Assembly: GCA_016188895.1 (NCBI GenBank)
Contig: JACPGZ010000046.1
Span: 1 to 42,993, forward strand
Direction of reading: 5' to 3'
Source: Candidatus Pacearchaeota archaeon
Lineage (GTDB): Archaea; Nanobdellota; Nanobdellia; Pacearchaeales; GW2011-AR1
DNA length: 42,993 nucleotides
The position numbers and the translations under genes were made by a program. Of this stretch, positions 3,347-41,812 are shown piece after piece (position 1 is the stretch's first letter; each line of letters opens with the position of its first letter). A model generated the notes under the pieces. That model ran no database searches, was not told the origin of the DNA, and saw only the letters and a program-made list of their open reading frames with translations.

Positions 3347-3354
3347 CTTTTTCA

Positions 3355-16345: not shown

Positions 16346-16361
16346 TCATGCTCCTGCCGAG
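16346..16361 (+). repeat. 16-bp direct repeat TCATGCTCCTGCCGAG, copy 1
   Basis: Exact second copy at 17465-17480. The reverse complement CTCGG-CAGGAGC-A looks like a tRNA T-stem/acceptor 3' end and resembles the tRNA-Glu 3' end at 40968-40981. Confidence 0.85.
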
Positions 16362-16486: not shown

Positions 16487-17410
16487 ATGGTGTATCACGA
16501 AGTACGGGAAGTTAATGGGAAGAAACAAAATTATTTAGTTTTCATCAAAAGAGACGGTGATAAAATAGTAAAGAAAAGCAAATTTATTGGTTCTGGGAGT
16601 ATTTCAAAAGAACACATAGAAAAATTAAAGAAGGAATTCGAAATAGATATTCTTAGCAGTATGCCTTCTAAAAATCTTTCAAAAGAACAACTTGCAGAGG
16701 TTGAAAGGCTAAAAAATATTTATCATAAAAAAATAAGTTCTTTAAGTAAAGAAGAGTTTGAAAAATTTGAAAACACTTTTTTTACAGAGCTTACATATGA
16801 TAGTAATGCTATAGAGGGTAGTTCTCTTTCACTTGAAGATACAAATTTAGTTATCAATGAAGGTTTAGTCCCAAAAGGAAAAACTTTAAGAGAAATTAAT
16901 GAAGCAAGAAATCATATAGAAGCAATAAGATTTATTAATAGTTATGAAGGTGACTTAAATGAGCAGTTTATTCTCAAACTTCACTCCATTATTCTTAAGA
17001 ATATCTCTGAACGATTTGCTGGCAGATATCGAGAAACTACGGTGAGAATTTTTCAAGGTGATGTTCATTTTCCAGATGCCTCAAGAGTTCCCCAATTGGT
17101 TGGGAATCTTGTCTATTGGTACAAATTAAATAAAAACAAGATGCATCCTTTTGAATTAGCTATTACTTTTTCAGTTAAACTTGTTTCAATTCATCCTTTT
17201 GTAGATGGCAATGGAAGGATTTCAAGGCTTATTATGAACTTTCTATTGAAAAAGAAAGGTTATCCTTGGATCAATATTTATATGAAACAAAGAGCAGAAT
17301 ATTTACATGCGGTAAGGCTGGCAAATGATGAAAAATACAAGCAGATTTTAGAATTTTGTATTCTTGTTCTCGAAGAAAATCTCAAAAGTTTTAATGTTCT
17401 TGGTTCTTGA
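16487..17410 (+). CDS. fic: Fic family protein (AMPylase-type)
   Basis: 307 aa; canonical HPFVDGNGRISRL motif and an upstream inhibitory-helix-like SNAIEG motif. Confidence 0.9.
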   Translation: MVYHEVREVNGKKQNYLVFIKRDGDKIVKKSKFIGSGSISKEHIEKLKKEFEIDILSSMPSKNLSKEQLAEVERLKNIYHKKISSLSKEEFEKFENTFFTELTYDSNAIEGSSLSLEDTNLVINEGLVPKGKTLREINEARNHIEAIRFINSYEGDLNEQFILKLHSIILKNISERFAGRYRETTVRIFQGDVHFPDASRVPQLVGNLVYWYKLNKNKMHPFELAITFSVKLVSIHPFVDGNGRISRLIMNFLLKKKGYPWINIYMKQRAEYLHAVRLANDEKYKQILEFCILVLEENLKSFNVLGS

Positions 17411-17464: not shown

Positions 17465-17480
17465 TCATGCTCCTGCCGAG
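17465..17480 (+). repeat. 16-bp direct repeat TCATGCTCCTGCCGAG, copy 2
   Basis: Exact copy of 16346-16361. Confidence 0.85.
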
Positions 17481-17516: not shown

Positions 17517-17750
17517 TTATTTTATTATGTATCTAGAATTCTTACGAGGCACTTGTTTATATATTTTTCTGTCTTCAAGAATAGAAAAAATTTTGTCCAT
17601 CATAATTTCTATCTTTAATATCTTAGAATTTTGTTTTAGCTTATTTCTGCAATATTCACTAATTGTTAGCTCTTCTTCTTGTGCTTGCTTTTTCAGCTTC
17701 TCAAAAAGTTCTGTTTCCACAACTAAGTGCAATTGGGTATTCTTTCTCAT
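17517..17750 (-). CDS. Ribbon-helix-helix (CopG-like) protein
   Basis: 77 aa; TQLHLVVETELFEKLKKQAQEEELTISEYCRNKL; divergent from the T4SS-like operon. Confidence 0.6.
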   Translation of the reverse strand: MRKNTQLHLVVETELFEKLKKQAQEEELTISEYCRNKLKQNSKILKIEIMMDKIFSILEDRKIYKQVPRKNSRYIIK

Positions 17751-17895: not shown

Positions 17896-17935
17896 TTTTA
17901 TTCATGTTTTTCTATATGTTTTTATTCATGTTTTT
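17896..17935 (+). repeat. Two direct 16-bp repeats TTTTATTCATGTTTTT, 24-bp period
   Basis: Copies at 17896-17911 and 17920-17935 in the divergent promoter region between the RHH gene and the T4SS-like operon; candidate operator. Confidence 0.6.
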
Positions 17936-17976: not shown

Positions 17977-18183
17977 ATGAATGAAAATGAAAGTTGTCTC
18001 ATCTGTAAAAAAGAAATAGCGATATACAATGGTGAAGTCTGCAAAAATTGTCTTCAGTTTTTCCAATGGAAATACAAAAAGAAATGGAAAAAAGAAATGA
18101 AAAGAGTTATTGATGGCATTGAAGAAGCAATAGCTTACCTTGATAGTTTAGATAACCTAAACAATGAAAGGAGGAAAAAATGA
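17977..18183 (+). CDS. Small zinc-ribbon protein
   Basis: 68 aa; CLICKK...CKNC; 4-nt overlap with the next gene. Confidence 0.55.
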   Translation: MNENESCLICKKEIAIYNGEVCKNCLQFFQWKYKKKWKKEMKRVIDGIEEAIAYLDSLDNLNNERRKK

Positions 18184-18509
18184 GGGTGCAATTAGTTGCT
18201 CTAGTGCTTGCATTTGTGTTGGCTGTTGCTCCTGTTTTGGCGGCTGTTGATTTTAACAAGCCGATAAGTGCTGAAGACCAATCAACATTTGATAAGATAC
18301 TTGAGCCTGTGATGAAAATCTACAACCTTGTCAAATACATTGCCACTGCAATTGCAGCTGTAATTTTGCTTGTTGCAGGTATTAATTACATGTTTAGCGG
18401 TTCTGACCCCAGAAAGCGAGAAAATGCAAAGAATATGGCGATGTATGTCATAATTGGCTTGATTATTATCTGGGCAACTCCGTTTGTAGTTAAATTCCTT
18501 GTTGGTTAA
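18180..18509 (+). CDS. VirB2/TrbC-like (CedA1/TedC-like) pilin candidate
   Basis: 109 aa; signal peptide ending VLAAVD, then two hydrophobic helices separated by the charged loop SGSDPRKRENAKN, the VirB2 topology. Confidence 0.55.
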   Translation: MRVQLVALVLAFVLAVAPVLAAVDFNKPISAEDQSTFDKILEPVMKIYNLVKYIATAIAAVILLVAGINYMFSGSDPRKRENAKNMAMYVIIGLIIIWATPFVVKFLVG

Positions 18510-18909
18510 AATGCGAAAGAAAACATGGCTAAGGATTTGGGCAGTTGTAACTCTCATAAGAATAGTGCTTGCTCTTCCATTTGCAGCAGGCGAGCATGAG
18601 CTAGAATTAAATTGCGATAATGTTCTAAAAGAAAAGCTTGATGACTGCAAATATATTCTAAATAGTGATTTTAATGAAGAAGAAAAACAGGATTTAATTG
18701 ATATTTTAAACAGCCAATCATATAGTTATGAATATAATTGGGAAGCTGTAGAAGAAATACCCCAATCTGAAACAAAAACACAGGAAATAGATAATGATAC
18801 TATTCTTTTTGCTTGGGATGTTGCTGTTCTTATTTTTTTTAACTATTTTGTCTATTCAGTATTAACTAAATCCTCTTTCTTTGAAAAATGGCTGAATGTG
18901 GTCTCTTAA
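18499..18909 (+). CDS. Secreted/membrane protein of the T4SS-like operon
   Basis: 136 aa; N-terminal signal/TM, acidic middle, C-terminal TM; overlaps both neighbours. Confidence 0.5.
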   Translation: MLVKMRKKTWLRIWAVVTLIRIVLALPFAAGEHELELNCDNVLKEKLDDCKYILNSDFNEEEKQDLIDILNSQSYSYEYNWEAVEEIPQSETKTQEIDNDTILFAWDVAVLIFFNYFVYSVLTKSSFFEKWLNVVS

Positions 18910-19706
18910 ATCTAGCAACATGCCTTCCAGAAAAGTTCTTTCAATATCTTGTAAATATAATTAATGCTCCAATAAAACCTCTCTTATCTTTAGTTAAAGG
19001 ACTTCTTTCAGAGCCAATTAGCCTTTCTTTATTTGTAAATCTATGGGCGATTATTATCTATCTTATTTCCATGTTTTATGGATTGTTCTTATTGTATTCT
19101 GGCTTTAATTTTATGATTTCAGGTCATGATGTTCAGAAAAGAGAGCAGGCAAAAACATGGCTTAGAAATATTGTCATAATGATTATTCTTGTCCAAGCCT
19201 CTTTTCTACTTTATGAGATTGCTATTGAGCTTTCTTCTATATTGACAACAGCGGTCTTAAGTCTTTTAGATAAGAATTTTTTCCTATTAACATTTGATAA
19301 TATTATCAATATCGGCTTACAGCTTATTTTTTTCTTTGTTTATCTTCTTGCGTTGCTTCTCACTGCAATTATTCTTATCATCAGATATGTTATTGTTGCT
19401 GTTGGAGTTGTTTTCTTTCCAATAGGAATTTTCTTTTATTTCATTCCGCCTTTAAGGCAATATGGCTCTTTAATCTTAAATTTTTTAGGAATAGCTATCT
19501 TTATTACATTCTTTGATGCAATTATTCTTATTGGCTTCTCAAAATTGCTTGGAATTCAGCTTTTTAGCAGTATGAAAATTCTTGTTATGATTTCTGCTTT
19601 TCTTTTCATAGATGCATTAATGTTCTTTCTTATGTTTTTCTCGCTCATTAAAGCAGGTTTTAATCTTGCTACTAAAATAGGAGGAGTTGTCTCAAAGTTC
19701 ACATGA
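18888..19706 (+). CDS. VirB6/TrbL-like (CedA-like) polytopic membrane protein
   Basis: 272 aa with about 6 TM helices, immediately upstream of the VirB4-like ATPase with a 4-nt overlap. Confidence 0.5.
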   Translation: MAECGLLNLATCLPEKFFQYLVNIINAPIKPLLSLVKGLLSEPISLSLFVNLWAIIIYLISMFYGLFLLYSGFNFMISGHDVQKREQAKTWLRNIVIMIILVQASFLLYEIAIELSSILTTAVLSLLDKNFFLLTFDNIINIGLQLIFFFVYLLALLLTAIILIIRYVIVAVGVVFFPIGIFFYFIPPLRQYGSLILNFLGIAIFITFFDAIILIGFSKLLGIQLFSSMKILVMISAFLFIDALMFFLMFFSLIKAGFNLATKIGGVVSKFT

Positions 19707-22672
19707 GCTATGAAATCCCGCAACAGCTTGAATACAAGGAAAAAATCATCTTTGGCTTAACATTCAAGCAGTTAGCTTATTTATTTCTCTTTGCTCCTCA
19801 AGTGTTAATTATATTTTTTAAAACACCACTTCCTCTTTATTCAAAAATTGCTATTTCACTTCTTCCTTCATCTCTTGCAATAGGATTTATGTTTCTCAAT
19901 CTTGATTATCACATTGTAAGCTGGATGATTTGGCTGAAATTCAGAAAAACAAAAAATCCAAAGAAAATCGTTCAATTTATAGGTGTAAAGGAAATTAAGA
20001 ATAATTTGATTATTATGAATGATAAAAGAAAACTCGCTGTTCTTAAAGTTCAGCCTATTAATTTTTCAATTAAACCTCAAGGCTCTCAAGAATCTATTAC
20101 CTCTTTATTTCAAAAGCTCCTGAATGCAATTGACTTTCCTGTTCAGATTATTATGAATACAGAAACTCTTGATTTAGGAGATTATTTAGAAGCAATACAG
20201 AAAAAAATAGAATTGCAAGGTAATAAACTCTTTATTCATTTATTTAAGAAGTATAAGGAACACTTAGAATCTCTTATTTCCCAAAACAAAGTGATGAACA
20301 GGAACTTTTATATTATTATTCCGGAGAAAAGTGCAATAGATATTCAGATTAGCATTTGTGAGAGAAAATTAGATGCCCTTGACCTAAAAAGCTCTCGTTT
20401 GGATAATGAACAATTAAGAAAACTGATTGATAAATTCTTTGGCTTTCCAATGAACATTGAAAATAATCCTGCTTATATTAAAATTAATGAAACTTTTAAT
20501 AGAATTATTTTTGCTCATGGCTACCCAAGAAGCGTAGAAGTTGGATTTCTTGATAAAATAGTAAGCACATTAGGGAATTTTGATTTGTCGCTCCATATTG
20601 AGCCTTATCATATTGAAACCATGATGATTACTCTAAATAAGGAACTGCAAAAGCAAAGAGCAGATTTATATTCGGCACAAAAAAGAGAAATTATTAACCC
20701 AAGCTTAGAGATTAAATATGCAGATACGAAGAATGTTTTAGAAAATCTTCAGAAAGGCAAGGAAAAACTATTTAATGTAAGCCTTTATATTAATTGTAGG
20801 GCACAAAATCTTGAGGAGCTTAATCTCTTAACTAAGAGAATTGAGGCAGAGCTTAATTCTTTAATGATTATTCCTAAAATCCCCCAATTTCGCATGGCTC
20901 AAGGATTTCTTTCTTGCGCCCCTATTGCGAAAAACAGCCTTGCTATGAGGCGAAACATTACTACAGAGGCTTTATCAGCCTTCTTTCCTTTTACTTCTTC
21001 CTTTTTGCAGGCTGATGCAACAGGAGTATGGCTTGGATTAAACAAGAATAATATTCCCATTATCAAGGATATTTTCAAATTAAGCAATCCAAATGGATTA
21101 TGTCTTGCAAGTTCTGGCTCTGGAAAGAGCTACATGGCAAAATTGCTCATTTCTCGTTATCTACTTAATGGAGTTAAGGTTATGGTGATTGACCCCCAAG
21201 GAGAGTATAGAAATCTCGTAGAGCGATTTAATGGCCAAAGGATAGACTTAAGCAGAACTTCTGAAACCATGATTAATCCTTTAGATTTAATGGGACATGA
21301 ATATTCTGAAAAAAGGTTGGCACTAATGGATTTAATGCCCATTATGTTAGGAGAACTCACAGAACCTCAAAAAGCATTTCTTGACAAAGCATTGACAAAA
21401 GCTTATGAGAAGTATTGTATTAATGAAGCTCAAGAAACATGGAACAATCAGCCTCCAATTCTTGAAGATATTGTGCAAGTGTTAGAAGACATGGAAAAAA
21501 GAGCTATAACTCTTGAAAAAACAACAATTCATAGCCTCGTCAATAGATTAAGCATGTATACTGATGGGGTTTTTTCTTTCTTGAATAAGCATACTAAAAT
21601 AGATTTCAATAATAATTTTGTGTGCTTTGATATAGGAAGCATGCCTAAACAAGTAAAGCCCGTAGTTATGTTTCTTGTTCTTGATTATGTCTATATGAAG
21701 ATGAGAGAAGACATCCAGAGAAAACTCCTTGTCATAGATGAGGCATGGTCTCTTTTAGGAAGAACAGAAGATGCTTCTTATATTTTTGAAATAGTTAAGA
21801 CATGCAGAAAATTCAACCTCGCACTCTTCCTTATTAATCAAGAAGTAGAGGGTATGCTTTCATCAGAAGCAGGAAAATCCGTGCTTGCAAATACTTCCTA
21901 CACCTTACTTATGAGACAAAAACCAGCTGTCATGAAGAACGTGCAAGATACATTTTATTTGAGCAATGCAGAAAGAATTTCTCTTTTAACAGCAGAAGTG
22001 GGTGAGGGCATTTTATTGATGGATGATGAGCATTCTGAAATAAAGATTATTGCATCAGAAGAAGAGCATAAATTGATAACGACAAAGCCTGATGAAATTT
22101 TAGAGCAAAATTCCAAAAAACAAAAGCAAGAGAAACCGAAAAAGGTTTCGGAGCTTAAACCTTTAGGTGCGGAGAAACCTTTAGTTAAGATTAGCGTTGA
22201 TGAAAATAAAGGGTTTTACAAGCATAAAGATTTGAAACTTCCTGACATAAAGTATTTGATTAAGAAGAACTATAAACAAAGTCGCAATATCAATATTTCT
22301 GGCAGGAGCGAATTATATTTGCTTAAGCCGAGAAGAGGAGAATCTCTTGAACATTTTTTCTTAATTAAAGATATTGAGGCTTATCTGCAAAAACACGCAG
22401 ATAAAGTTGAGCTTTTTGAAACAACAAAGCCAGATATTATTTTTGAGATTAATGGAAAAAGATATGCAGTTGAAGTTGAAACAGGAAAAATCTTAACAAA
22501 AGATAAAAACAAACTGCAAAATAAGATTGAGAATTTGAAAAAAGAATATGATAATAATTGGTTTTTTGTTGTAACGAATTACAGATTTGCTTCTTCATAT
22601 AATCAATTAGGCAAGACATTCACAAGAAAAAACTTTTTGAAACAATTTCCAAAATGGCTCAAAAACACTTAA
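19703..22672 (+). CDS. VirB3(PrgI)-VirB4/TraC-like conjugation ATPase fused to a C-terminal PD-(D/E)xK nuclease-like domain
   Basis: 989 aa. N-terminal 2-TM PrgI-like segment (IIFGLTFKQLAYL). Walker A ASSGSGKSY (nt 21116-21130) and Walker B LLVIDEAWSL (nt ~21725-21748). C-terminal ~140 aa carries E...PDIIFE...AVEVETGK (nt ~22430-22489). Confidence 0.8.
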   Translation: MSYEIPQQLEYKEKIIFGLTFKQLAYLFLFAPQVLIIFFKTPLPLYSKIAISLLPSSLAIGFMFLNLDYHIVSWMIWLKFRKTKNPKKIVQFIGVKEIKNNLIIMNDKRKLAVLKVQPINFSIKPQGSQESITSLFQKLLNAIDFPVQIIMNTETLDLGDYLEAIQKKIELQGNKLFIHLFKKYKEHLESLISQNKVMNRNFYIIIPEKSAIDIQISICERKLDALDLKSSRLDNEQLRKLIDKFFGFPMNIENNPAYIKINETFNRIIFAHGYPRSVEVGFLDKIVSTLGNFDLSLHIEPYHIETMMITLNKELQKQRADLYSAQKREIINPSLEIKYADTKNVLENLQKGKEKLFNVSLYINCRAQNLEELNLLTKRIEAELNSLMIIPKIPQFRMAQGFLSCAPIAKNSLAMRRNITTEALSAFFPFTSSFLQADATGVWLGLNKNNIPIIKDIFKLSNPNGLCLASSGSGKSYMAKLLISRYLLNGVKVMVIDPQGEYRNLVERFNGQRIDLSRTSETMINPLDLMGHEYSEKRLALMDLMPIMLGELTEPQKAFLDKALTKAYEKYCINEAQETWNNQPPILEDIVQVLEDMEKRAITLEKTTIHSLVNRLSMYTDGVFSFLNKHTKIDFNNNFVCFDIGSMPKQVKPVVMFLVLDYVYMKMREDIQRKLLVIDEAWSLLGRTEDASYIFEIVKTCRKFNLALFLINQEVEGMLSSEAGKSVLANTSYTLLMRQKPAVMKNVQDTFYLSNAERISLLTAEVGEGILLMDDEHSEIKIIASEEEHKLITTKPDEILEQNSKKQKQEKPKKVSELKPLGAEKPLVKISVDENKGFYKHKDLKLPDIKYLIKKNYKQSRNINISGRSELYLLKPRRGESLEHFFLIKDIEAYLQKHADKVELFETTKPDIIFEINGKRYAVEVETGKILTKDKNKLQNKIENLKKEYDNNWFFVVTNYRFASSYNQLGKTFTRKNFLKQFPKWLKNT

Positions 22673-22819
22673 AATTTTGCATAGCTGAATTTGCCCTTTT
22701 AGGCTCTAAAAAGCCTGAATTTAGTAGTTTTAGACATTTTTTGCAGTCCACTAAAGGGATTTCGCGCTTTACCCACCCACTGCCGCCCATAACTTTCATG
22801 ATAATGGAGGTAAATCAAA

Positions 22820-23008
22820 ATGAAAAAACCACAACCAGTTGAAAAACAAGAAGCGGCAAAGCTGAGCAGTATCAAGATAGAGCAGTTAAGCAGACAGCCT
22901 ATCATTGAAAGCTCAATCAGTAAAAGTGAAGATGGCAAATGGGTTATCCATAAAACCATAATCACAGACATCAAGCCTGTCAGCTATTTTGAGAAAGTTC
23001 TTGCTTAA
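22820..23008 (+). CDS. Hypothetical small protein
   Basis: 62 aa; GGAGG 8 nt upstream of the ATG and a strong hairpin terminator downstream. Confidence 0.55.
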   Translation: MKKPQPVEKQEAAKLSSIKIEQLSRQPIIESSISKSEDGKWVIHKTIITDIKPVSYFEKVLA

Positions 23009-27047: not shown

Positions 27048-27097
27048 CTACTAAAGCATCATAGTTTAAATTTCCTTGCGGTTGTTTCTCCATATTT

Positions 27098-27264
27098 TAA
27101 GCAAAGAAGATTTACTAATTGATGTTACTAAAACAGATATAGAAAAACGCCTTATCAAGACAGAGAAAGAAAATACTCTTCTCAAAGAGAAGATGTTGGA
27201 CATGGAGCAACAAATGAAGAAGATTTTAGAGTTGGTTGATAAAGCAATTGGGAAGATTAGTTAA
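27098..27264 (+). pseudogene. Remnant of a second tyrosine-integrase gene (C-terminal tail only)
   Basis: Encodes SKEDLLIDVTKTDIEKRLIKTEKENTLLKEKMLDMEQQMKKILELV, homologous to the last ~55 aa of the integrase at 39723..40889 (SEEDLLIDVTKTEIEKRLLKTEKDKEILQEKIESMEKQMGKILELL). Roughly three-quarters nt identity by eye, opposite strand. Confidence 0.7.
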
Positions 27265-29690
27265 AATTCTATATTTGTTTTTAAATGATTTAAAATACTA
27301 ACTTGGTCAATTGTATCTGATTTTCTCTTTGCATTATTGATTATCTTCTTGACATCTTGCTTATCTAAAATAATAACTCTTCCTTTAGATTTATTCATAT
27401 AATCTTTAAAAGCAAGGCCTAAATTAATTCTAAGAGGGCTGTCCAATTTTTTATTTATCATAAATTGTTCATATAAAGTAATAAGATCTTGTAAATTTAA
27501 AAGAACTATCTTTCCAGACCATCCCCGATATCTAATTATATAATCAGAGAAACTCTTAAATTGTTTTAGATCTAAACTATTGGATATAACCATAAAACAA
27601 GAAAGATTTTTTGAGAATGCTTTAATTTCTGGTGCTTGATTTGTTCTTTTGATATAATCTCTAGCCTTTCTTTTCTCATCCATATCCAAATCATAAATAT
27701 TAGAAGAATATTTACAATCATAAATCAATGAAAAACCCTTTTTAGGAGTAATGTTGGAAGTTATCCCGTACAATCCATCTGGAACCGCTTTTCTTTTTTG
27801 ATCCTTTCCCCATTTGTAAATACCATAAAAACATGCTCTCAAAAGAGGGTAACATAAATCTTCAAATTCATCTCCATTAGAAACATATTTTTTATCTCTA
27901 ATCTCGATAAGTTTTTGATTAGCATCTTTTGTTTTTAATATCAAAAGGTCTTCAAACTTCTTAATTACTTTTGTGTTTATTTCTACTTTTATATCTTCAT
28001 CTTTATCAAAAATAAGATTATATGCAAATATCTCAGATGACAAATTATAACTATTTTCTCTAATTTCTTTATCTATAATTATTTTCACAATGGGTATCAT
28101 AGAGATTTCGATTTTGTTTAAAATTTTTCCAATTCTCCTCACAGATTCAAGATAGAGATAGAATTCGGTTTTAGTATCTTTAAAATAAACAAAAGGATAT
28201 TTAGTTTTTCCTATTTTATGAAGTCTTATAGATATCCTATCTTTACCATATATTTTTTTAAGGCGTTTCACAATAAATTCAAACAAAGCATCACGATTTA
28301 TCACTATATATTCCCTTGGTTCCAGTTTTTTAATATTGGCACCACATTTAGGGCAGTTATTTATATTAACATTATAAAAACGGTGAGCTGAAGTATTATC
28401 AACACAAACATAACATACATCTTCATTTGAATGAAGGAGTCCTTTAGAAGCAATTTGAACATATACCTCTTTTTCTTTAGAAGACAACTCTGAAGGAACT
28501 TTACCAATTATATTCTTAAAAATTTCTATATCACTAAGCTTTGATTCTTCTCTTTCGTAAGGAGCATGAATTTCTATCCCAAAATCTTCATTTAATATTT
28601 TTGTAATCTGTTTATATCTAAATTCTGATAGCCCCCTATTAGTGAATATAAAAGATATCGCGTTGGGATCTTTTCTATCTATTAATATAGTCTGGGTAAA
28701 ACCATTCAAATCAAGTTGAAAACTTCTTAAATTATGTATGTTTTTTGGATCTACAAAACTATTATCAATAAAAGTAGACATGCATTGATTAAGTGGTGCT
28801 CCATGTTTGGATTCCCTAAAAGTACATTGGCAATTGACTCCCTTTTCAAGCTTATTAAAAACAAGTTGTATAATTTTTGCATTCTTTGATTGGTACTTAA
28901 TTATCTTTGAGATTATATCTTTTATATTGCTCTTTGTTTTTATGCTCTCAACATAAATTTTATAATTTAAATCTTTAAGAATCAGAGTGAATAAATCTAA
29001 GATTTTTGGATTTCCAGACCTTATCTCTATTTGATTTTTAGTTAAGTCAAATTTTATAAAATAAATCCCTCTTCTTCTAATTGATTTACTCTCCCCATAA
29101 CCTGTAACAACATCCTCTTTTTTTGATTTTTCAAAACAGAAGAAAACTTCACTATTTGATTTAAAATTTCTGGAAGATCTATTCTTTCCTAACTTAAGTT
29201 TTTTTGTGTAATTTTGGATATTAATATTCTTGAAAGAAGAAATAGTATCTTCTGAAATCCCTGGATTTATAGACCATATTTCTAACATTCTTGTTTTATA
29301 GTAGAGAAAATAAAAAAAACTATCAGTGATTTTTTCTCTATCATTAATATATAAATAAATAAGGCCTAATAATGGATTATCTATATACTCTTTTTTAAGT
29401 TTAAGCTTCGTGAAAAAATCTCGTAATGAATCAATCTTACCCTTGAGATAATTAAATAATCCGTAAAATTCTTTTCCCTTTAGAGTCTTGAATATCTCTT
29501 TTATTTTGTCTTTTTCATTCACATTTATCTCATTCACATTAAAAAATTTTAAGAGAATTTGTTTATCAGTAAAACATGGCTCTATTCTCTGTTTGAAGGT
29601 AGCTAGCCAGTTATCGTTAAGACCATCCAATTTTCTTGGGCTAACTCCTATATTAAGCCAAAAATCTTCATTTTGAATTGTTTCTTGCAT
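27261..29690 (-). CDS. Large uncharacterised protein with central zinc ribbon and C-terminal FokI-like PD-(D/E)xK nuclease domain
   Basis: The ORF track starts at a TTG (29732); the ATG at 29690 is preferred because of the conserved promoter spacing. CYVC...CPKC ribbon at nt ~28335-28435. C-terminus VPDGLYG...SLIYDCKYSSNIYDLDMDEKRKARDYIKR parallels FokI KPDGAIY...VIVDTKAYSGGYNLPIGQADEMQRYVEE. Confidence 0.65.
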   Translation of the reverse strand: MQETIQNEDFWLNIGVSPRKLDGLNDNWLATFKQRIEPCFTDKQILLKFFNVNEINVNEKDKIKEIFKTLKGKEFYGLFNYLKGKIDSLRDFFTKLKLKKEYIDNPLLGLIYLYINDREKITDSFFYFLYYKTRMLEIWSINPGISEDTISSFKNINIQNYTKKLKLGKNRSSRNFKSNSEVFFCFEKSKKEDVVTGYGESKSIRRRGIYFIKFDLTKNQIEIRSGNPKILDLFTLILKDLNYKIYVESIKTKSNIKDIISKIIKYQSKNAKIIQLVFNKLEKGVNCQCTFRESKHGAPLNQCMSTFIDNSFVDPKNIHNLRSFQLDLNGFTQTILIDRKDPNAISFIFTNRGLSEFRYKQITKILNEDFGIEIHAPYEREESKLSDIEIFKNIIGKVPSELSSKEKEVYVQIASKGLLHSNEDVCYVCVDNTSAHRFYNVNINNCPKCGANIKKLEPREYIVINRDALFEFIVKRLKKIYGKDRISIRLHKIGKTKYPFVYFKDTKTEFYLYLESVRRIGKILNKIEISMIPIVKIIIDKEIRENSYNLSSEIFAYNLIFDKDEDIKVEINTKVIKKFEDLLILKTKDANQKLIEIRDKKYVSNGDEFEDLCYPLLRACFYGIYKWGKDQKRKAVPDGLYGITSNITPKKGFSLIYDCKYSSNIYDLDMDEKRKARDYIKRTNQAPEIKAFSKNLSCFMVISNSLDLKQFKSFSDYIIRYRGWSGKIVLLNLQDLITLYEQFMINKKLDSPLRINLGLAFKDYMNKSKGRVIILDKQDVKKIINNAKRKSDTIDQVSILNHLKTNIEF

Positions 29691-29730
29691 AAAAAACCAA
29701 TAAAATCCACCTATAATTATCTTTCTATTC
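29691..29730 (-). promoter_or_regulatory. Conserved promoter element GAATAGAAAGATAATTATAGGTGG-N16-ATG
   Basis: The first 19 nt are identical to the element at 30197-30236. The TTATAGGTGG-N16-ATG part is shared with the mod upstream region (35452-35486). Confidence 0.6.
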
Positions 29731-30196
29731 AAAAGGAAATCTCTGACTTTTTCTCTGAATTAAAATAATTATGTAATTTTTGCTTTATACTCTTACTTTT
29801 ATAAATTTTCCCAGTTTCATCGCGGTACCATGCAAAATCGCAATCTCTTCCTCTTAATTCATCTAAAGTAAACCATTCACTATGAGATTTTCCTTCCCCT
29901 AGTTCTCTAGGCAAACTAATTGTTTTAATATTTATTAAATCATCTTTTCCCACACGAATGCCAACAGATGAAAGAGTTACTGGTCTTCTTCCTTTGTTTA
30001 TTGCCTTAACAAAAAAGAATGGGCCTTCTGCTCCCTTACCGCTTCCCATTACACCGAAACTAGCTTTCACCTTTATTTTTGCTTTGTCTCGGTTATAATT
30101 ATATAAACTTAAAATTATCCCTAATGTTGAAATAATTGATCCATAAATTGCTAAGAGCATTATATAATTTTTTACAATAAATTCTAATATTGTCAT
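29729..30196 (-). CDS. Small membrane-anchored protein (N-terminal TM plus beta-rich domain)
   Basis: 155 aa; one TM (IMLLAIYGSIISTLGIILSL), no recognisable domain; located between res and the FokI-like gene. Confidence 0.6.
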   Translation of the reverse strand: MTILEFIVKNYIMLLAIYGSIISTLGIILSLYNYNRDKAKIKVKASFGVMGSGKGAEGPFFFVKAINKGRRPVTLSSVGIRVGKDDLINIKTISLPRELGEGKSHSEWFTLDELRGRDCDFAWYRDETGKIYKSKSIKQKLHNYFNSEKKSEISF

Positions 30197-30236
30197 TTAA
30201 ATCTTAAAAAATCCGTATATAATTATCTTTCTATTC
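30197..30236 (-). promoter_or_regulatory. Conserved promoter element GAATAGAAAGATAATTATATACGG-N16-ATG
   Basis: Same element and the same 40-nt distance to the ATG as at 29691-29730. Confidence 0.6.
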
Positions 30237-30253: not shown

Positions 30254-33007
30254 TTAAGCATGTTTTTTAATTATGTCCTTAACATCCGAAGGCCTAAAAG
30301 AAACATCCCATGTCCATTTTCCAAATCTTCCATCTCTATTAACTGCATTAATCCACTCTTGTAAGTATTCTCTTTTAGTATTATTCTGTTGATCATCTTT
30401 CCCTTTAACTTCCAAAATTAGCATTTGATTATTATTGAGCTTTATCAAAAAATCTGGATAATATTTGTGAATAATACCCTTATAAATATAATTTATAACA
30501 AATCCGATATGGTCATTCTTCACCCAGGATTTCACATCTTTATTTCTGTCAAATTCAAATGCTTCTGACGCCTCCCATCCGCTATCAATTACAACATGGC
30601 TAATATGAGACTTTTTAACTAATTCACATCTTTTACTAGTATACCAAGTCATCATTTTTCCTGTAGACTTTATTGGTTGTTCTTTATCATAAACAGCCAC
30701 TGCCTCTTCAGTATTCTCAAATCTAATTGCACTAAATAGATGCTGAACTATCTTACTCATATTTAATAAAATTAAAACTCTTCTTTTTAGTTCTTCATTA
30801 TAGGTTTTGCTCTTAATAATAAGCTTGTCAGAATTAAGAAAATCTTCAACAATTTTAACTAATTGCATAAGTAAACTATCCTTATCTCCTTGCCAACTCG
30901 GTTGCATTTGTTCATAAATATCTCTTGTTGTTTCAAAGATAAGCCTTTGCATTCTATATTTTTTTCCCAAACTTTCTAGTTCGATTTCCCTTATCTTTTC
31001 TACATTTGGTTTACCCTCAATAACAGGAGCCATCTCAACTAACATAGGTGTATCTTCAGGATTGAGTTCGAATGACTTTACTTTTTTTGTGTCTAAAGAT
31101 AGTTTTGGTCTATAAATATGGTTAATCCTCAAGACATTAGGCCATTTGATCTCGTATTCTTTTTTATTACCTTCAACAAAAATTCTTGTTTTTGGTTTTG
31201 GTGGAGCAGGAATTGTTTCTCCTGTTCCTTCATGAGGCAAGAAAGTAAATGGAACTCCAAAAATATTGACATATTCTGCATCAAAAAGTCCTGTTTCAGG
31301 ATTTACTTCATAAGAGGTTCTTCTTAGTCCTCTTCCAACAACTTGTTCACATAACAATTGACTACTAAACGCTCTTAAACCCATAATGTGAGTAACTGTT
31401 TTTGCATCCCATCCTTCAGATAACATTGCGACAGCTATTATATTTTGTATTTGTTCACCCATTTCACCAACTTTTCCAACTGTATCAACCTTCTTTCTTA
31501 GGATTTCGGCTTGTTCCTGTTTCGACAATCCATTTTCCTCTTTTATTGCTTCCTCTGTATCTTTCTCTTCTGCTTTTTTTAATACATCTGAATCTATTCT
31601 AAGCATTCTTTCAGTATCTTTAAGTTCATCAATTCTTATTTTTCCCTTTTTAAATGAGTTCTCAACTCTTGCCGCAGTCTCGGTTCTGTTACAAACCGTG
31701 ATTAAAACAGGAGGAACTTTAACTTTTTCCTTTCCCCATAGTTTTTTTGTTTCAAGCCAATCTTTTCCTAAAAAATAATAAGCATTTACAACTAAGTCGG
31801 GAAGAGGATCTGTTTCTTCAGCTTTTTTATTTAAACTTGCTTTCACTTCTGAGTCCATGTATATATGATAAAATCTAGATTTCATATCTTTTGTGAGAGT
31901 TCCATCATCTCTTATTACAACTCTTGGTGTTTTGACTAAGCCAGATTCAATTGAGTCATTTAAACCAAAATCACTTACAATCCATCCAAATAATGTCTCT
32001 TCATAAGTCCTTTTACCAGATGGAGCAAAGGGTGTTGCAGAGAAGTCATGGCATGATAAAATTCCTCTAGTTTTATTTATTCTATCTAATCCCCCTATCC
32101 AGATTGTTGCTTCTTCTGCACTATCTTTATCTTCACTAACCCTTTGGTATTTTCCTTCAGCTTTTATGTTTGTTCTCCATGCATGGTGAGCTTCATCATT
32201 TATAATTAAAATATTCTTAGCGTCAGAAAAATCTCCCAGAACTCTTTTTGTAAAAGCTTCATCACTTTCCTCTCCTACTTTTTTTCTCATAACTGGTGGC
32301 AAGCTTTTTGCATCTAATGGAGCTAACATATGCCAGTTAATTATTTTTATTTTTCCTTGTCTTAATTTATCAAATTCTGAAGAAGGAATCATATCAAATT
32401 CTGAATAATAATTTTGTTCATTTGAAGATTTTAATACCTGTAGCCTACTTTTAACTGTTAATCCTGGTGCAACAACAAGGATATTTTTTGAAAAACGATT
32501 ATCTTTAGGATAAGTTATTTTATTTAAAATCTGCCAAGCTATTAACATTGCCATAACTACTGTTTTCCCTGTTCCAGTTGCCATTTTTGAACAAATTCTT
32601 TGAAATTCTCCACCATCATCAGGGATTTTTATTCCTTGTTTTTCACTTGCTGGTGCTTCAACAAGCCAGATTAAAGTTTCAATTGCCTCTAATTGACAAA
32701 AGAAAAGCTTCATCTCTCTTTCAGGATTTTTCCAATATTCAAGAAGACTTTTTGTTATGCTTGTTACCCCGGGATACCCTGACTCTCTCCATTTATCAAC
32801 TCTCTTTCTTATTTGATTTACTAGTGGGAGTTCAATAAAATGCCCTGGATCATCAAATGATTTTGAACTTTCTGAAGCAACAACATATCCTGCTGGACGC
32901 CTTCCATCAACTATCTCAAACTTTCTTATTTCCCTTACATACTTTAAGTGAGTTTTTGGTTTTTCATAAGGGCTACTTATAATTAAATGGTCTGTTGTAT
33001 TTGTCAT
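30254..33007 (-). CDS. res: Type III restriction enzyme Res subunit (SF2 helicase plus C-terminal endonuclease)
   Basis: 917 aa; MATGTGKT (motif I), INDEAHHAW (DEAH), C-terminal YYPDFLIK...LILEVKGKD PD-(D/E)xK motif; 4-nt overlap with mod. Confidence 0.85.
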   Translation of the reverse strand: MTNTTDHLIISSPYEKPKTHLKYVREIRKFEIVDGRRPAGYVVASESSKSFDDPGHFIELPLVNQIRKRVDKWRESGYPGVTSITKSLLEYWKNPEREMKLFFCQLEAIETLIWLVEAPASEKQGIKIPDDGGEFQRICSKMATGTGKTVVMAMLIAWQILNKITYPKDNRFSKNILVVAPGLTVKSRLQVLKSSNEQNYYSEFDMIPSSEFDKLRQGKIKIINWHMLAPLDAKSLPPVMRKKVGEESDEAFTKRVLGDFSDAKNILIINDEAHHAWRTNIKAEGKYQRVSEDKDSAEEATIWIGGLDRINKTRGILSCHDFSATPFAPSGKRTYEETLFGWIVSDFGLNDSIESGLVKTPRVVIRDDGTLTKDMKSRFYHIYMDSEVKASLNKKAEETDPLPDLVVNAYYFLGKDWLETKKLWGKEKVKVPPVLITVCNRTETAARVENSFKKGKIRIDELKDTERMLRIDSDVLKKAEEKDTEEAIKEENGLSKQEQAEILRKKVDTVGKVGEMGEQIQNIIAVAMLSEGWDAKTVTHIMGLRAFSSQLLCEQVVGRGLRRTSYEVNPETGLFDAEYVNIFGVPFTFLPHEGTGETIPAPPKPKTRIFVEGNKKEYEIKWPNVLRINHIYRPKLSLDTKKVKSFELNPEDTPMLVEMAPVIEGKPNVEKIREIELESLGKKYRMQRLIFETTRDIYEQMQPSWQGDKDSLLMQLVKIVEDFLNSDKLIIKSKTYNEELKRRVLILLNMSKIVQHLFSAIRFENTEEAVAVYDKEQPIKSTGKMMTWYTSKRCELVKKSHISHVVIDSGWEASEAFEFDRNKDVKSWVKNDHIGFVINYIYKGIIHKYYPDFLIKLNNNQMLILEVKGKDDQQNNTKREYLQEWINAVNRDGRFGKWTWDVSFRPSDVKDIIKKHA

Positions 33008-35451
33008 TTTAAACTAATAATCTTTAATGATTCTATTCCTCTATCATCGATAATTTTTACAGCAATTTGATTATTCTTTCCTGCTTTAAACGGAAGAGAA
33101 ATATTTCCAGAGTATTTTTCTATCAAATCTTCGTCAATAAATGCTTTAAGGTTTTTAGCGAGTTTATTCCATCCTTCTCCCTCTCCTAATTCCCACATTG
33201 CAATTTTTGAAGTATCTCCTGATTCAATCTCTCCGGTTTTTGTGTTATAATAATCAAAACCATTGATCTGAACAATGTATTTTTCTCCTTGTTTCTTTAT
33301 TTCAATATCTGGCTGACCGATAAGCCAAAATGATTCATTGCTTGATCTTTTCTTTTTTAAGTCTTGAGTAAGCAAATCAGTATTCATTTGTGCTTTTATT
33401 ACATTTACTCCCGGCCATTTTAATTCATCAATGTCTTTGGCTGCTTCTGGGTCAAATTGGAATGATGCAAAAACAATTATTTTCGGTTTTGGGACTAATT
33501 TTTGAGCTTCCTCAATCGCTAATTCAACTTGCCTTTGTTCTAATGGAGCATATTCTGGCCCAAAAGAAACAACAACTTTCTCTCCTGTTTTTGTTTCTCC
33601 TTCTGCATGTAACCATCTTGTTGCAGGAAGTGGTTCAATTCTAAAGAATTCTAATTTTTGTCCACCTTTTCCCCTTATCCCAGAAGATAATAATTCATCT
33701 GTCCATTCATTTTGTCTTAGAGTTTCTCCTGAACGAGCAACACTATTATCTGCCTCTTGTTTTATTTTTACTGCTTCAATTTCATCAAAACTTCTTACTC
33801 TTTGAGATGGAACAGCTTCAAATGTAAAAGGTCCTGTAACTCTTTTTTTATTTTTATCAATTAATGGCTGATCATAAAGAGTTTCTTGTTGTGCAGGTTC
33901 ATTATTTGCAATTGAGCCAAGAGTAATGTGAGGTACGATTTTGTATTTAAAACCACTACTAACTCCTTCTTGAGGATGGGCCAGTTCATAGTATTCAAAT
34001 AAAGAAGTCATGAGTCTTTGTTTGGCAAGAGTAATTGCAACTCTTGAAGTATCGCAAGTTATCCATCTTCTTCCCCATTGTTCAGCAACATAAGCAGTTG
34101 TTCCAGAGCCACAAGTTGGGTCTAATACTAAATCTCCCGGGTCTGTTGTCATAAGAATACATCTATTAACCACTGCGGTGTTCGTTTGAACAACATATAC
34201 TTTGTTTTGTTCAGCCCATAAATCTGTCCATGTCGCATTAATCTTCATATATGGAAAATCACTATAATATTTTTTATATCTTAATTGATTTCCAGATTCA
34301 AATAACCTATTTAGTTTAGCTAATTGTTTCATTGAATTTTCTGAGACTCTCCAACCATTGACAGGATCATATGTTTTACCATTATAGCTAAATTTATATC
34401 TTGTTTGTAGGGTACTTGCTACAAGAGGCATTGTTGTAAAAACTTTATTTCTGTCAAAGTTTATTTTCTTTTCTTTTGCTTCTCTATAACTTATGAAACT
34501 ATTTTTATATTCTACCAAATCAGAGTCGTCAAAGTCCTCTGCTCTTTCAGTAAATAATTCACGATATTTCATTTGACTCTTATCTTTTGCATACCATATA
34601 ATAAAATCGCAAACTCCCGAAAGTAGTTTAGTCGGTTTAGTGCTTGCAGTTCTAAATTGTATTATTGTGATAAAGTTATCCATTCCGAAAACTTCATCCA
34701 TAATTTCTCTAACATGATGCAAGTTCTCATCTGAAATTTGAACAAAACAACTTCCACTTTCATGCAATAACTCATAAGAAAGTTTTAATCTACCTCTAAG
34801 ATAAGTAAGATAAGAATGAATTCCTAATTCCCAAGTATCTCTAAATGCTTTAATCATCTCTGGCTCTTGAGTCAAATCTTCATCTTTTTGATCTTTAACA
34901 TCTCTTTTATTAACAAATGGTTGAAAATTTGAGCCATATTTAATCCCATATGGTGGATCAATGTATATCATCTGAACTTTTCCAGCCATGCCCTCTTTCT
35001 CTATTAAGGAATTCATAATAAGTAAAGAATCACCAGCGATTAATCTATTTGACCAATCTTGACTATGTTTATAAAACTCTATTGCTTCTCTTATTGGAGG
35101 ATTATTTTCTTTTAATTCGAAATAATGAAATAATGTTTGTTGTTCTTTCTCTTCCCTGCTTTTTACCTTTTCTATTATTGTTAAAGGATCAATTCTTTCA
35201 TGAACGTGCAAAGAAACAGTATCTACATTAAACGATTGTCCTTCTGTTTTTCCTGCCCATTGTAATTGAGGATCTATATGAGGATCATACTGATATTTTT
35301 TCTGCCCATTAAGATGATCTGTTTCTGCTGTAACAAGACCGACAGGAGGATTATTTGCTCTTTTTTCATTTTGATAGGTATATTGTTTTACTTCTATTTT
35401 TTCATATATCTTCCTCTTCCCAGTCTTCTGCTTATGTTTCTTTCTTACCAT
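33004..35451 (-). CDS. mod: Type III R-M Mod methyltransferase (beta-class N6A/N4C)
   Basis: 815 aa; DPPYGIKYG (motif IV) precedes DPTCGSGTTAYVAEQ (motif I); N-terminal YDPHIDPQLQWAGK, typical of Type III Mod proteins. Confidence 0.85.
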   Translation of the reverse strand: MVRKKHKQKTGKRKIYEKIEVKQYTYQNEKRANNPPVGLVTAETDHLNGQKKYQYDPHIDPQLQWAGKTEGQSFNVDTVSLHVHERIDPLTIIEKVKSREEKEQQTLFHYFELKENNPPIREAIEFYKHSQDWSNRLIAGDSLLIMNSLIEKEGMAGKVQMIYIDPPYGIKYGSNFQPFVNKRDVKDQKDEDLTQEPEMIKAFRDTWELGIHSYLTYLRGRLKLSYELLHESGSCFVQISDENLHHVREIMDEVFGMDNFITIIQFRTASTKPTKLLSGVCDFIIWYAKDKSQMKYRELFTERAEDFDDSDLVEYKNSFISYREAKEKKINFDRNKVFTTMPLVASTLQTRYKFSYNGKTYDPVNGWRVSENSMKQLAKLNRLFESGNQLRYKKYYSDFPYMKINATWTDLWAEQNKVYVVQTNTAVVNRCILMTTDPGDLVLDPTCGSGTTAYVAEQWGRRWITCDTSRVAITLAKQRLMTSLFEYYELAHPQEGVSSGFKYKIVPHITLGSIANNEPAQQETLYDQPLIDKNKKRVTGPFTFEAVPSQRVRSFDEIEAVKIKQEADNSVARSGETLRQNEWTDELLSSGIRGKGGQKLEFFRIEPLPATRWLHAEGETKTGEKVVVSFGPEYAPLEQRQVELAIEEAQKLVPKPKIIVFASFQFDPEAAKDIDELKWPGVNVIKAQMNTDLLTQDLKKKRSSNESFWLIGQPDIEIKKQGEKYIVQINGFDYYNTKTGEIESGDTSKIAMWELGEGEGWNKLAKNLKAFIDEDLIEKYSGNISLPFKAGKNNQIAVKIIDDRGIESLKIISLK

Positions 35452-35486
35452 AAAAATTATAAAATAACCACCTATAAAAAACTATC
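35452..35486 (-). promoter_or_regulatory. mod promoter element TTTTATAGGTGG-N16-ATG
   Basis: Shares TTATAGGTGG and the exact 16-nt spacing to the ATG with the element upstream of the FokI-like gene. Confidence 0.55.
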
Positions 35487-35616
35487 TTGTGCCTCATAAG
35501 AATGTATAATTAGACTCCATTCTTATTCATCTGACGCTTTCCAAGGTAAATATCTATTCTATTTTGTCTAATTTATGGCCTTCAACTTCTCCCTTAAATC
35601 ATCCCAGTCACATACT

Positions 35617-40889: not shown

Positions 40890-40967
40890 GTTTTAAAGAG
40901 ACAGGTTATTTATATAAATAACTTGTATGATTTTTGTATGCCCACCAAATTCATCAAAAAGATATAA

Positions 40968-41181: not shown

Positions 41182-41205
41182 ATAAGGGTAAACCCTTATC
41201 AACCC
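41182..41205 (+). repeat. 24-nt exact repeat copy B (ATAAGGGTAAACCCTTATCAACCC) in the tRNA-Glu 5' leader region
   Basis: Identical to 3044-3067. Embedded in a 51-nt hairpin domain closed by GAAGAAC (41175-41181) / GTTCTTC (41219-41225). Confidence 0.9.
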
Positions 41206-41269
41206 AGACACTGAGTTGGTTCTTCCTTAAACCATCTCCTAATTGTTAGTTTATTAAATTTTCTATAAG

Positions 41270-41803: not shown

Positions 41804-41812
41804 CTTAATTCA
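41589..41812. repeat. ~224-bp duplicated block (5' coding region plus upstream) copy 1
   Basis: Near-identical to 42770-42993 (offset 1181 bp). The promoter-proximal ~150 bp differ at about one position. Confidence 0.85.

Follow-up and report, generated by a model that had tools for sequence, protein, structure and literature searches.

The window analysed here is a 42,993-nt stretch of contig JACPGZ010000046.1 from a Candidatus Pacearchaeota archaeon. It carries a compact operon that encodes a type IV secretion system (T4SS), which can be compared first of all with the MPF_FATA systems of monoderm bacteria, such as CD1110/CTn2, pCW3 (Tcp), pCF10 (Prg) and the Mollicute integrative and conjugative element (ICE) Mbov_0397. 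The VirB4 ATPase of the operon is closest to the CD1110 and Mbov_0397 models, and its nearest plasmid relatives in PLSDB are conjugative VirB4s of Firmicutes, actinobacteria and Mollicutes, the best matches coming from Clostridium, Paenibacillus, actinobacteria and Spiroplasma at only 23-32% identity. Like the MPF_FATA systems, the operon has a PrgI/VirB3-like anchor and a polytopic partner of the VirB6/PrgH type, and an outer-membrane core complex is not needed. Unlike in these systems, no relaxase, type IV coupling protein (T4CP; VirD4/TcpA), VirB1-type hydrolase or VirB8-like protein is recognised in the module, VirB3 is fused to VirB4, the fusion has an extra C-terminal nuclease-like domain, and a VirB2-type pilin is present; we know of no conjugative pili in the T4SSs of monoderm bacteria. 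The element is T4SS/ICE-like with an unusual triple-fusion motor, and its family is widespread in Nanoarchaeota (Woesearchaeota and Pacearchaeota). With moderate confidence we read the cluster as the transfer module of a tRNA-integrating, ICE-like family, in which the nuclease tethered to VirB4 would substitute for both relaxase and coupling protein.

A similar set of parts has been described from the Patescibacteria, or candidate phyla radiation (CPR), which are likewise ultra-small and host-dependent (PMC12102498). Their minimal T4SS also consists of VirB4, VirB3/PrgI, VirB6 and VirB2-like pilins (PF18895, PF04956), has an MPF_FATA affinity and is mostly missing a relaxase. According to the same paper CPR have no VirB3-VirB4 fusions, TrsD is common, the genes are found near dnaA/oriC with T4CP homologues elsewhere in the genome, and the system is thought to serve epibiosis rather than conjugation; nuclease and integrase go unmentioned (0 occurrences each). 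The archaeal module differs in that VirB3, VirB4 and the nuclease-like domain form one polypeptide, and in its context of integrase, tRNA, methylase and defence cargo, and it can be set against the T4SS of the Patescibacteria, which looks alike but is chromosomal.

Among archaea, Ced in Sulfolobales and Ted in Thermoproteales have the same kinds of parts: a VirB2-like pilin, a VirB6-like channel protein with a pilin-homologous N-terminus, and a VirB4-like ATPase (PMC9905601). They too are relaxase-less, with a cleavable signal peptide on the TedC-like pilin. Both are described as domesticated and chromosomal, and Ted loci adjoin HerA, MinD/ParA and, in some genera, Rad50; pairs of the HerA-NurA type are cited for the Ted neighbourhoods (PMC9905601). 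Unlike Ced and Ted, the present module is embedded in integrase-bearing islands, and no nuclease domain is reported on the Ced and Ted ATPases. Instead of a stable chromosomal locus we found integrase, methylase, cargo and variable neighbourhoods. No Ced-named NCBIfam model matched the small proteins of the operon at E <= 1.

Two further comparisons concern the motor. HerA-NurA end resection pairs a hexameric DNA pump with a DNA-preparing nuclease, and VirB4 belongs to the same HerA/FtsK-like class of ATPases. Unlike NurA, which has an RNase H fold, the domain found here is predicted to be of the PD-(D/E)xK type (Hjc/NucS-like); it is fused to a membrane-anchored secretion ATPase, and no repair genes are linked to the module. 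The conjugative plasmids and ICEs of archaea, both pNOB8-type in Sulfolobus and haloarchaeal, are likewise archaeal elements with VirB4-like ATPases, and a haloarchaeal plasmid VirB4 (Salinibaculum, 24.7% identity) was among our PLSDB matches. To our knowledge they lack a recognisable relaxase, possess in addition an ATPase of the TraG/VirD4 kind, and are considerably larger. In contrast, the element described here has a DPANN host and a far more compact operon of about 5 kb with pilin, VirB6 and VirB3-VirB4-nuclease. An integrated conjugative plasmid is known in Sulfolobus (PMC9899855).

Public annotation already labels some homologues as 'VirB4-like conjugal transfer ATPase, CD1110 family' or 'TraC', so the presence of VirB4 itself is not new. 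In our literature search we found no T4SS, conjugative element or ICE described for Woesearchaeota or Pacearchaeota, and no VirB4-nuclease fusion. DPANN archaea are abundant, tiny and host-dependent, and how they exchange genes and reach into their partners is largely unknown. If our reading is true, the family would be a major overlooked vehicle of gene flow in the phylum, especially for defence systems. The fusion is also a candidate, open to testing, for the DNA-processing step that is missing where archaea transfer DNA without a relaxase, a question that equally concerns the Sulfolobus plasmids and Ced/Ted. Should the relaxase-independent reading be true, these would be the first conjugative elements of DPANN archaea and an answer to how archaea conjugate without a relaxase.

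The operon and its motor protein

The six open reading frames (ORFs) of the initial annotation were all found again at the same positions (Table 1), and the 4-, 22- and 4-nt overlaps between them are real; relatives show those of 22 nt and 4 nt as well. The 11-nt overlap between the pilin gene and that of the bitopic membrane protein, here called X, exists only with a TTG start. There is an in-frame ATG at 18511, 1 nt past the pilin stop, and the same 1-nt spacing is seen in the related loci L004 and L005. The module genes, six or seven depending on how they are counted, are all intact and tightly coupled. The parts list proposed from the sequence comprises a Zn-ribbon protein, a VirB2 pilin, a bitopic protein, a VirB6-like protein and a VirB3-VirB4 fusion; its minimal T4SS set of VirB2, VirB6 and VirB3/VirB4 is supported by Pfam, NCBIfam and fold matches well above what chance would give. 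The host had been suspected to be a DPANN-like archaeon and is one of the Nanoarchaeota (Woese-/Pacearchaeota-like); its archaeal nature is supported by the archaeal RNase P RNA at 3094-3349 and by the names of the homologues. A thermosome gene is also present in the window, and the close homologues of the cluster all come from metagenome-assembled genomes of Woesearchaeota, Pacearchaeota or Nanoarchaeota.

To compare the operon with its relatives, all ORFs of 83 related loci were clustered, and counts out of 50 refer to the non-redundant loci with at least 7 kb of upstream sequence. Pilin, X, VirB6 and VirB4 form a core that is nearly universal among the related loci, the pilin being found in 45 and VirB6 in 47 of the 50. 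The pilin passes the Pfam cut-offs both for T4SS_pilin (58.8 bits, cut-off 26.6) and for TrbC/VirB2 (41.2 bits, cut-off 27.9). The 272-residue protein is all-helical and polytopic. Its AlphaFold2 model (pLDDT 79 from a 27-sequence alignment) was compared with the PDB in Foldseek, where TrwI/VirB6 of R388 took ranks 1, 3 and 4, matching over the full length with probabilities of 0.80-0.97 and E-values of only 0.1-0.5. Pfam TrbL_3 is recorded on several of its homologues. Judging from the model, it is with moderate confidence a VirB6-type polytopic channel protein, and with the pilin thresholds passed and TrwI/VirB6 as best fold match the VirB2- and VirB6-like identities first given to the small proteins hold. 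Residues 29-105 of the channel protein are also 28% identical to the pilin (BLASTP, E 2e-9). The same N-terminal pilin homology is described for CedA/CedA1 and for VirB6/VirB2 (PMC9905601); being common to VirB2 and VirB6, it is not specific to Ced/Ted.

The fusion protein starts with a two-helix, PrgI-like segment, which scores 25.2 bits on residues 5-65, below the cut-off of 27, and PF12666 is recorded on many full-length homologues. The ATPase that follows has Walker A (ASSGSGKS, 469-476) and Walker B (LLVIDE, 675-680) motifs with residues that are invariant in the relatives. It exceeds the Pfam cut-offs for P-loop_TraG (96.6 bits, 1.6e-27), DUF87 (59.1 bits) and AAA_10 (47.1 bits), and matches the VirB4 structure 4ag5 in the PDB at 2e-30. 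Its affinity was judged by comparing scores of hidden Markov models as a proxy for phylogeny. The NCBIfam model for CD1110 VirB4 gave 306.2 bits (4.8e-91), under the equivalog cut-off of 325, and that for Mbov_0397 VirB4 of the Mollicute ICE gave 288.5 bits (8.3e-86), under its cut-off of 590. The model of the Ced DNA-translocating ATPase (NF053655) gave 46.7 bits against a cut-off of 600. By these scores the ATPase has its affinity with VirB4s of the conjugative MPF_FATA type, CD1110 and Mbov_0397 being the closest models, but is not a member by the curated thresholds.

These scores do not support the view of the initial annotation, that the composition mirrors the Ced/Ted importers rather than conjugation, and nor does the genomic context. 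In relatives it consists of tRNA-adjacent integrases, orphan methylases, NikA-like ribbon-helix-helix (RHH) proteins and variable defence cargo, and in the window there are att-like repeats, the remains of one integrase, and another integrase of the same family beside a tRNA. Two things, the conjugative affinity of the ATPase and the positional link of the module to integrase, methylases, a relaxosome-accessory-like RHH and swappable defence cargo, make a domesticated importer of the Ced/Ted kind less probable.

The C-terminal domain of the VirB4 fusion

Behind a variable, Lys-rich linker the VirB4 protein carries a nuclease-like domain of about 165 residues, which had escaped the initial annotation. 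Sequence searches alone gave nothing significant for it, and structure prediction was needed. The AlphaFold2 model (pLDDT 93.7, from a 28-sequence alignment) has an alpha-beta-beta-beta-alpha-beta core, with helices at 57-73 and 104-124 and strands at 76-79, 87-91, 94-101 and 128-132 of the model. Among the 50 Foldseek matches listed from the PDB all but one (probability 0.08) are PD-(D/E)xK nucleases, including Cdn1, AF2093, NucS/EndoMS, Hjc (probability 0.98-0.99), R.BspD6I, PspGI, RecU, McrC, Mus81 and TnsA, at weak E-values of about 1e-3. Below the thresholds, sequence matches were seen to Cas4, CoiA_nuc, HSDR_N_2 and a pPIWI-associated REase; those to Cas4 and CoiA_nuc, weak as they are, fall on the catalytic motif, Cas4 being aligned at D…E.K.

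Residues E880, H884, P910-D911, E924, E926, T927-G928 and K941 are invariant or nearly so among relatives that are 49-90% identical overall. The motif reads E…PD…ExE, with Glu where Lys is usual, and the invariant K941 lies on the next helix. The spacing of the motif presumably matches that of Hjc (E12/D42/E55/K57), and for the ExE variant there is a precedent in BamHI.

None of the PLSDB plasmid VirB4s aligns past residue ~800, and the nuclease-like domain is absent from all those searched. A profile search with the domain among 1.84 billion sequences found 715 representatives, including both C-termini of VirB4 and stand-alone proteins. The latter are about 290 residues long, with two transmembrane helices and a basic, Lys-rich linker in front of the domain (P0133, P0136). 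One of them (P0133; L086, 696-1571) belongs to another element, where its neighbours are a tyrosine recombinase, a NikA-like RHH gene and an AbiE-like pair; no VirB4 is encoded in the 5 kb around it. A predicted nuclease fused to the motor bears directly on the puzzle of how a relaxase-less system could work.

Related loci and the readings compared

More than 900 proteins are homologous to the full-length fusion, with identities of 54-90%. Among the GTDB species representatives there are about 200 matches, of which the best 80 are nearly all from Nanoarchaeota, and the module is also present in several hundred metagenomic protein clusters. Two copies of the module VirB4 occur in several genomes. 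Of seven such genomes, five have copies that are 54-64% identical, about the divergence of random members of the family (median 58%), and two have copies that are 77% and 84% identical.

The genes around the module recur in a certain order. A tRNA gene is followed by an integrase gene, 0-3 variable genes, an orphan DNA methyltransferase gene and an RHH gene, the last two on the opposite strand, and then by Zn-ribbon protein, pilin, X, VirB6, VirB4 and cargo, often with an Lrp-like regulator and a protein of about 90 residues called f7. The tyrosine integrase, of one family, is present in 24 loci (16 of the 50 non-redundant), with homologues of the window's integrase in 23 module-bearing loci, the methyltransferase, with a DPPY or DPPW motif, in 31 of the 50, and the RHH protein of about 60 residues in 16 of the 50. 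At least one of the three is found in 33 of the 50. The integrase gene is directly downstream of tRNA-Asp in seven loci and of tRNA-Cys and tRNA-Glu in one each. In L039 the last 12 nt of the tRNA-Asp gene and 3 nt more recur 150 nt past f7, a perfect 15-nt repeat that bounds a 14.7-kb element enclosing the module (0 of 200 shuffles). There f7 is the last called gene on the same strand before the att repeat, and a 53-residue ORF on the opposite strand overlaps the repeat.

From locus to locus the neighbourhoods show no synteny. Restriction-modification (R-M) systems are the cargo most often found next to the module; type I and type III R-M, Dam, Dcm-like proteins, GmrSD, DndB, GHKL ATPases, an AbiE-like ATPase, reverse transcriptase, LamG surface proteins and Fic were all observed.

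The search for the missing transfer genes covered the six ORFs of the cluster and 36 further ORFs of 74-917 residues across the window, which together include most ORFs of at least 90 residues. In Pfam and NCBIfam none of them was a relaxase, VirD4/TcpA or VirB8/9/10, and PADLOC, PHROGs and a PDB sequence search of the window's unknowns added none. The absence of relaxase, T4CP and VirB8/9/10, at first noted only around the operon, thus extends to all the scanned ORFs of the window. Unknowns of 823, 155 and 239 residues and some small ORFs were considered as a hidden T4CP or relaxase and rejected, with nothing in Pfam, NCBIfam, PADLOC, PHROGs or PDB. No relaxase, T4CP or replication protein was seen among the scanned accessory genes of related loci, and the variable genes between integrase and module and the cargo block of L039, considered as transfer genes, turned out to be defence genes or unknowns. 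The only relaxosome-like candidate in the window is the RHH protein, through weak matches to NikA and MbpA. An ATPase of conjugative type accompanied by a relaxase or T4CP had been named as the sign of an ordinary ICE; the ATPase affinity is indeed conjugative, and neither relaxase nor T4CP appeared.

The genomic island around the module looks mobile. A new family of archaeal mobile elements, with the module as its transfer engine, is therefore more probable than a system domesticated for DNA uptake. The methylases and the nuclease domain tied to the motor suggest that DNA, and not protein, is the substrate. On our reading the RHH protein, perhaps together with the Zn-ribbon protein, would mark or regulate a site on the element, and the nuclease on the VirB4 hexamer would nick or cut the DNA at the cytoplasmic mouth of the machine, thereby taking the jobs of the bacterial relaxase and coupling protein. 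VirB4, as a translocase of the HerA/FtsK class, would then drive the DNA via the VirB6 pore and the VirB2 pilus into another cell. The orphan methylase would have protected the DNA beforehand from restriction in the recipient, where the integrase would insert it at a tRNA gene. One membrane-anchored polypeptide would in that case recognise, cut or nick, and pump the DNA of the element, a conjugation independent of both relaxase and coupling protein; we put this forward tentatively, as a possible but doubtful mechanism.

Several observations weigh against reading the family as mobile and the domain as its nuclease. No relaxase, T4CP, oriT or replication gene is recognised in the window or in the related loci, so that the competence for transfer is putative. 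Of the 16 integrase-bearing loci a single one gave clean att repeats (the flanks of 8-10 kb may be too short), and the distal att copies of the window are degenerate (2 of 14 positions mismatched) with modest statistics. About a third of the loci have no integrase, methyltransferase or RHH gene within 8 kb, and some lie amid housekeeping genes, as in L002 with its ribosomal proteins and an aminoacyl-tRNA synthetase. The fold matches of both the channel protein and the nuclease-like domain have weak E-values, the third catalytic position of the domain is Glu and not Lys, and we infer its activity from fold and conservation only. Furthermore, the Patescibacteria have a minimal, relaxase-less, MPF_FATA-derived T4SS that is chromosomal and reported to be essential for epibiotic growth (PMC12102498).

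The loci without mobile hallmarks and those embedded among housekeeping genes would also fit a domesticated host function. In this alternative, for which the T4SS of the Patescibacteria is a close parallel, the pilus would touch a host or sister cell and VirB4 would draw nucleic acid inward via VirB6. Incoming DNA would be processed by the fused nuclease, either for recombination or for the salvage of nucleotides in a symbiont poor in biosynthesis, and the nearby integrases and defence genes would mark no more than a variable region of the genome. The minimal parts are those of Ced/Ted, pilin, VirB6-like protein with pilin-like N-terminus and VirB4 (PMC9905601), and neither relaxase nor T4CP was recognised among the scanned genes. 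Among Nanoarchaeota the module is very common and well conserved, in many cases on long chromosomal contigs, and a nuclease located at the cytoplasmic end would be equally suited to process imported DNA. We nevertheless consider an importer rather unlikely. The ATPase resembles conjugative VirB4s far more than the Ced ATPase, the module is repeatedly linked by position to a dedicated integrase beside a tRNA gene, to orphan methylases and to NikA-like RHH proteins, that of L039 lies inside an att-bounded element, and genomes may have multiple divergent copies in neighbourhoods that are not syntenic. On the question, raised by the initial annotation, whether the cluster is conserved outside mobile contexts, the answer is divided: two thirds of the non-redundant loci have a mobile hallmark, and the remainder do not.

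A transfer engine could also have decayed in the window genome itself, into an immobilised relic whose T4SS genes are open but no longer serve transfer. The remnant of a second integrase, the degenerate distal att copies, an orientation of the T4SS relative to the integrase that departs from the canonical order, and the lack of an orphan methylase beside the module point this way. Against it, the module genes are intact and tightly coupled, the Walker motifs and the nuclease residues are kept, and one integrase and the tRNA are intact; a 90%-identical VirB4 (P0001) in another sample implies that the sequence is under selection. A relic is in our view unlikely.

Fic proteins are classic T4SS effectors in bacteria, and Fic genes recur beside the module, in the window and in L005, L014, L028 and L079. 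A pilus for attachment or for the delivery of effectors such as the neighbouring Fic toxin into host cells, with no DNA substrate, is nevertheless very improbable, for although some T4SSs function without a T4CP (PMC12102498) and the long, variable extracellular forms of X could be adhesins, the motor carries a conserved, fused nuclease-fold domain with invariant residues of catalytic type, the most constant neighbours are DNA methylases and a DNA-binding RHH protein, which point to a DNA substrate, and Fic is found in only 6 of the 83 loci.

Partner proteins and the island in the window

The positions of the main features are given in Table 1.

Table 1. Features of the operon and of the island around it, in order of position in the window.
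Feature	Position	Strand	Remarks
Att-like copy of tRNA 3' end (ATGCTCCTGCCGAG)	16348-16361	same as 40967-40980	2 mismatches in 14 nt; left of Fic
Fic/DOC protein	16487-17410	+	Pfam Fic 1.4e-20; PADLOC PDC-S04/SoFic
Att-like copy of tRNA 3' end	17467-17480	same as 40967-40980	2 mismatches in 14 nt
RHH protein, divergent from operon	17517-17750	-	weak NikA-like, MbpA and ORF56 matches
Two copies of TTTTATTCATGTTTTT, 24 nt apart	17896-17911, 17920-17935		read from sequence
Zn-ribbon protein	17977-18183	+	68 aa; two CxxC pairs, CxxC-x12-CxxC-xxFFxWKY
VirB2-type pilin	18180-18509	+	109 aa; signal peptide, basic loop between two hydrophobic helices
Bitopic membrane protein X	18499-18909	+	136 aa; probable true start ATG 18511
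VirB6-like polytopic channel protein	18888-19706	+	272 aa; pilin-like N-terminus
VirB3-VirB4 fusion ATPase with C-terminal nuclease-like domain	19703-22672	+	989 aa
VirB3/PrgI-like membrane anchor (aa 1-76)	19703-19930	+	Pfam PrgI, weak
VirB4 ATPase: TraC-like N-domain and P-loop domain	20000-22102	+	Pfam, NCBIfam and PDB matches
PD-(D/E)xK nuclease-like domain (aa 826-989)	22178-22669	+	conservation, AlphaFold2, Foldseek
Conserved 62-aa soluble protein, downstream of VirB4	22820-23008	+	ORF list
Second-integrase C-terminal remnant (aa 328-378, 65% identity)	27097-27252	+	tblastn
Type III R-M cargo (res 30254-33007, mod 33004-35451)	30254-35451	-	Pfam ResIII, N6_N4_Mtase; PADLOC MTase_III 451 bits
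f7 protein, 97 aa	39424-39717	+	49-53% identity in two best matches; homologues in 16 loci
Tyrosine integrase	39723-40889	-	Pfam Phage_integrase 6.5e-10; ~62% identity in two best matches
tRNA gene with 124-nt intron	40968-41171	-	acceptor and T arms fold, z = -5.9; relaxed ARAGORN

X and the 62-residue protein had no family match. The Zn-ribbon protein gave no family match either, though its position is kept in relatives, small homologues being found directly upstream of the pilin gene in at least 19 of the 50 loci. A 362-residue DNA methyltransferase of L019 (5398-6486) has the same motif (CxxC…CxxCxxFFxxKY) fused to its C-terminus, a functional link between the Zn-ribbon protein and the modification or recognition of DNA. 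X stands two genes before VirB4 in 57 loci and is either about 130 or about 450 residues long, the long forms having a large, variable extracellular part. Counterparts of the 62-residue protein, with 55-84% identity, are found just after VirB4 in about 25 of the 83 loci. A 189-residue protein called at this place in relatives was rejected as an artefact of longest-ORF calling, the actual conserved gene encoding about 60 residues.

The RHH protein matches the Pfam NikA-like family weakly (5e-4), as well as MbpA and ORF56, and belongs to a conserved RHH family with homologues at the equivalent position and orientation in 26 related loci. From these matches it is likely a regulator or an accessory factor in DNA processing. 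The two copies of TTTTATTCATGTTTTT lie in the control region between the divergent RHH gene and the start of the operon, and the pair is a candidate operator for the RHH or the Zn-ribbon protein. The spacer between VirB4 and the 62-residue gene (22673-22819) shares a conserved patch, …CCACTAAAGGG.T.T.CGC…, with L002, L006, L007 and L014; in relatives it is up to about 400 nt long, and it is nearly identical in L002 and L007. A search of the spacer for a conserved RNA or an oriT found patchy conservation only and no convincing structure. The spacer could contain either a small RNA or a site in the DNA, with oriT as one candidate.

The window's integrase, of the family that accompanies the T4SS module in relatives, adjoins the intron-bearing tRNA gene, which is the likely integration target, with the att core at its 3' end (40967-40980). 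Default ARAGORN and the Rfam gathering search miss this tRNA. The intron is at a non-canonical position and the identity of the tRNA is uncertain; the relaxed ARAGORN call is tRNA-Ser(tga), and the T arm and the 3' strand of the acceptor resemble the tRNA-Asp targeted in relatives. A BLAST search of the window with the tRNA/integrase junction for an exact or near-exact far att gave chance-level matches only, and a mismatch-tolerant pattern search gave three att matches, including the query, as compared to 0.35 expected by chance per window. The copy at 17467 stands outside the module, 37 nt from the RHH gene with which the module begins, and we propose this copy as the distal border of an island of about 23.5 kb (~17.5-41.0 kb) that would end at the tRNA. 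The island contains the T4SS module, a family 2 glycosyltransferase (GT2), unknowns, the type III R-M system, a radical-SAM protein, regulators and f7, which in relatives marks the end of the element.

Just outside this border, the Fic gene is bracketed by a 33-nt direct repeat (16433/17413) and by the att-like 14-mers at 16348 and 17467. It looks like a small cassette that was inserted in tandem at the att site. The integrase remnant implies an earlier second insertion or a rearrangement within the island. Given the inverted T4SS, the decayed second integrase and the degenerate distal att, the island has probably been rearranged and is perhaps immobilised.

Some repeats and genes of the window lie apart from the module. 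A 35-nt direct repeat (3044-3078 / 41182-41216; 89% identical), which contains the palindrome ATAAGGGTAAACCCTTAT, was considered as an att pair and rejected, as the interval would enclose RNase P RNA, tRNA-Phe and thermosome. Its copies lie just upstream of the RNase P RNA gene and, on the other strand, of the intron-bearing tRNA gene, and it may be a promoter or regulatory element shared by stable RNAs. A 43-nt repeat (67-79% identical) at 29688-29730, 30194-30236 and 35449-35491 extends over the start codons and upstream regions of three genes on the minus strand, those of the 823-residue unknown, the 155-residue unknown and the type III mod. This suggests a shared block of promoter or ribosome-binding site, and the two unknowns are perhaps co-regulated with the R-M system. 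Two adjacent minus-strand paralogues at 41270-41803 and 41824-42984 share a 257-nt 5' part (41556-41812 / 42737-42993; 91% identical), which encodes an identical hydrophobic N-terminus (MKKAQVWSLDIIVGVTIFIIAIIIFYIY…) with a weak DUF7287 match; their products are probably surface proteins, or proteins that resemble archaeal type IV pilins, whose C-terminal domains have been swapped. A second defence locus occupies 149-2220, at the window's other end, with a Dam-type (D12 class) methyltransferase and a match to the PADLOC candidate PDC-M38A / PD-Lambda-5_A encoded by two minus-strand genes (149-1000 and 1198-2220).

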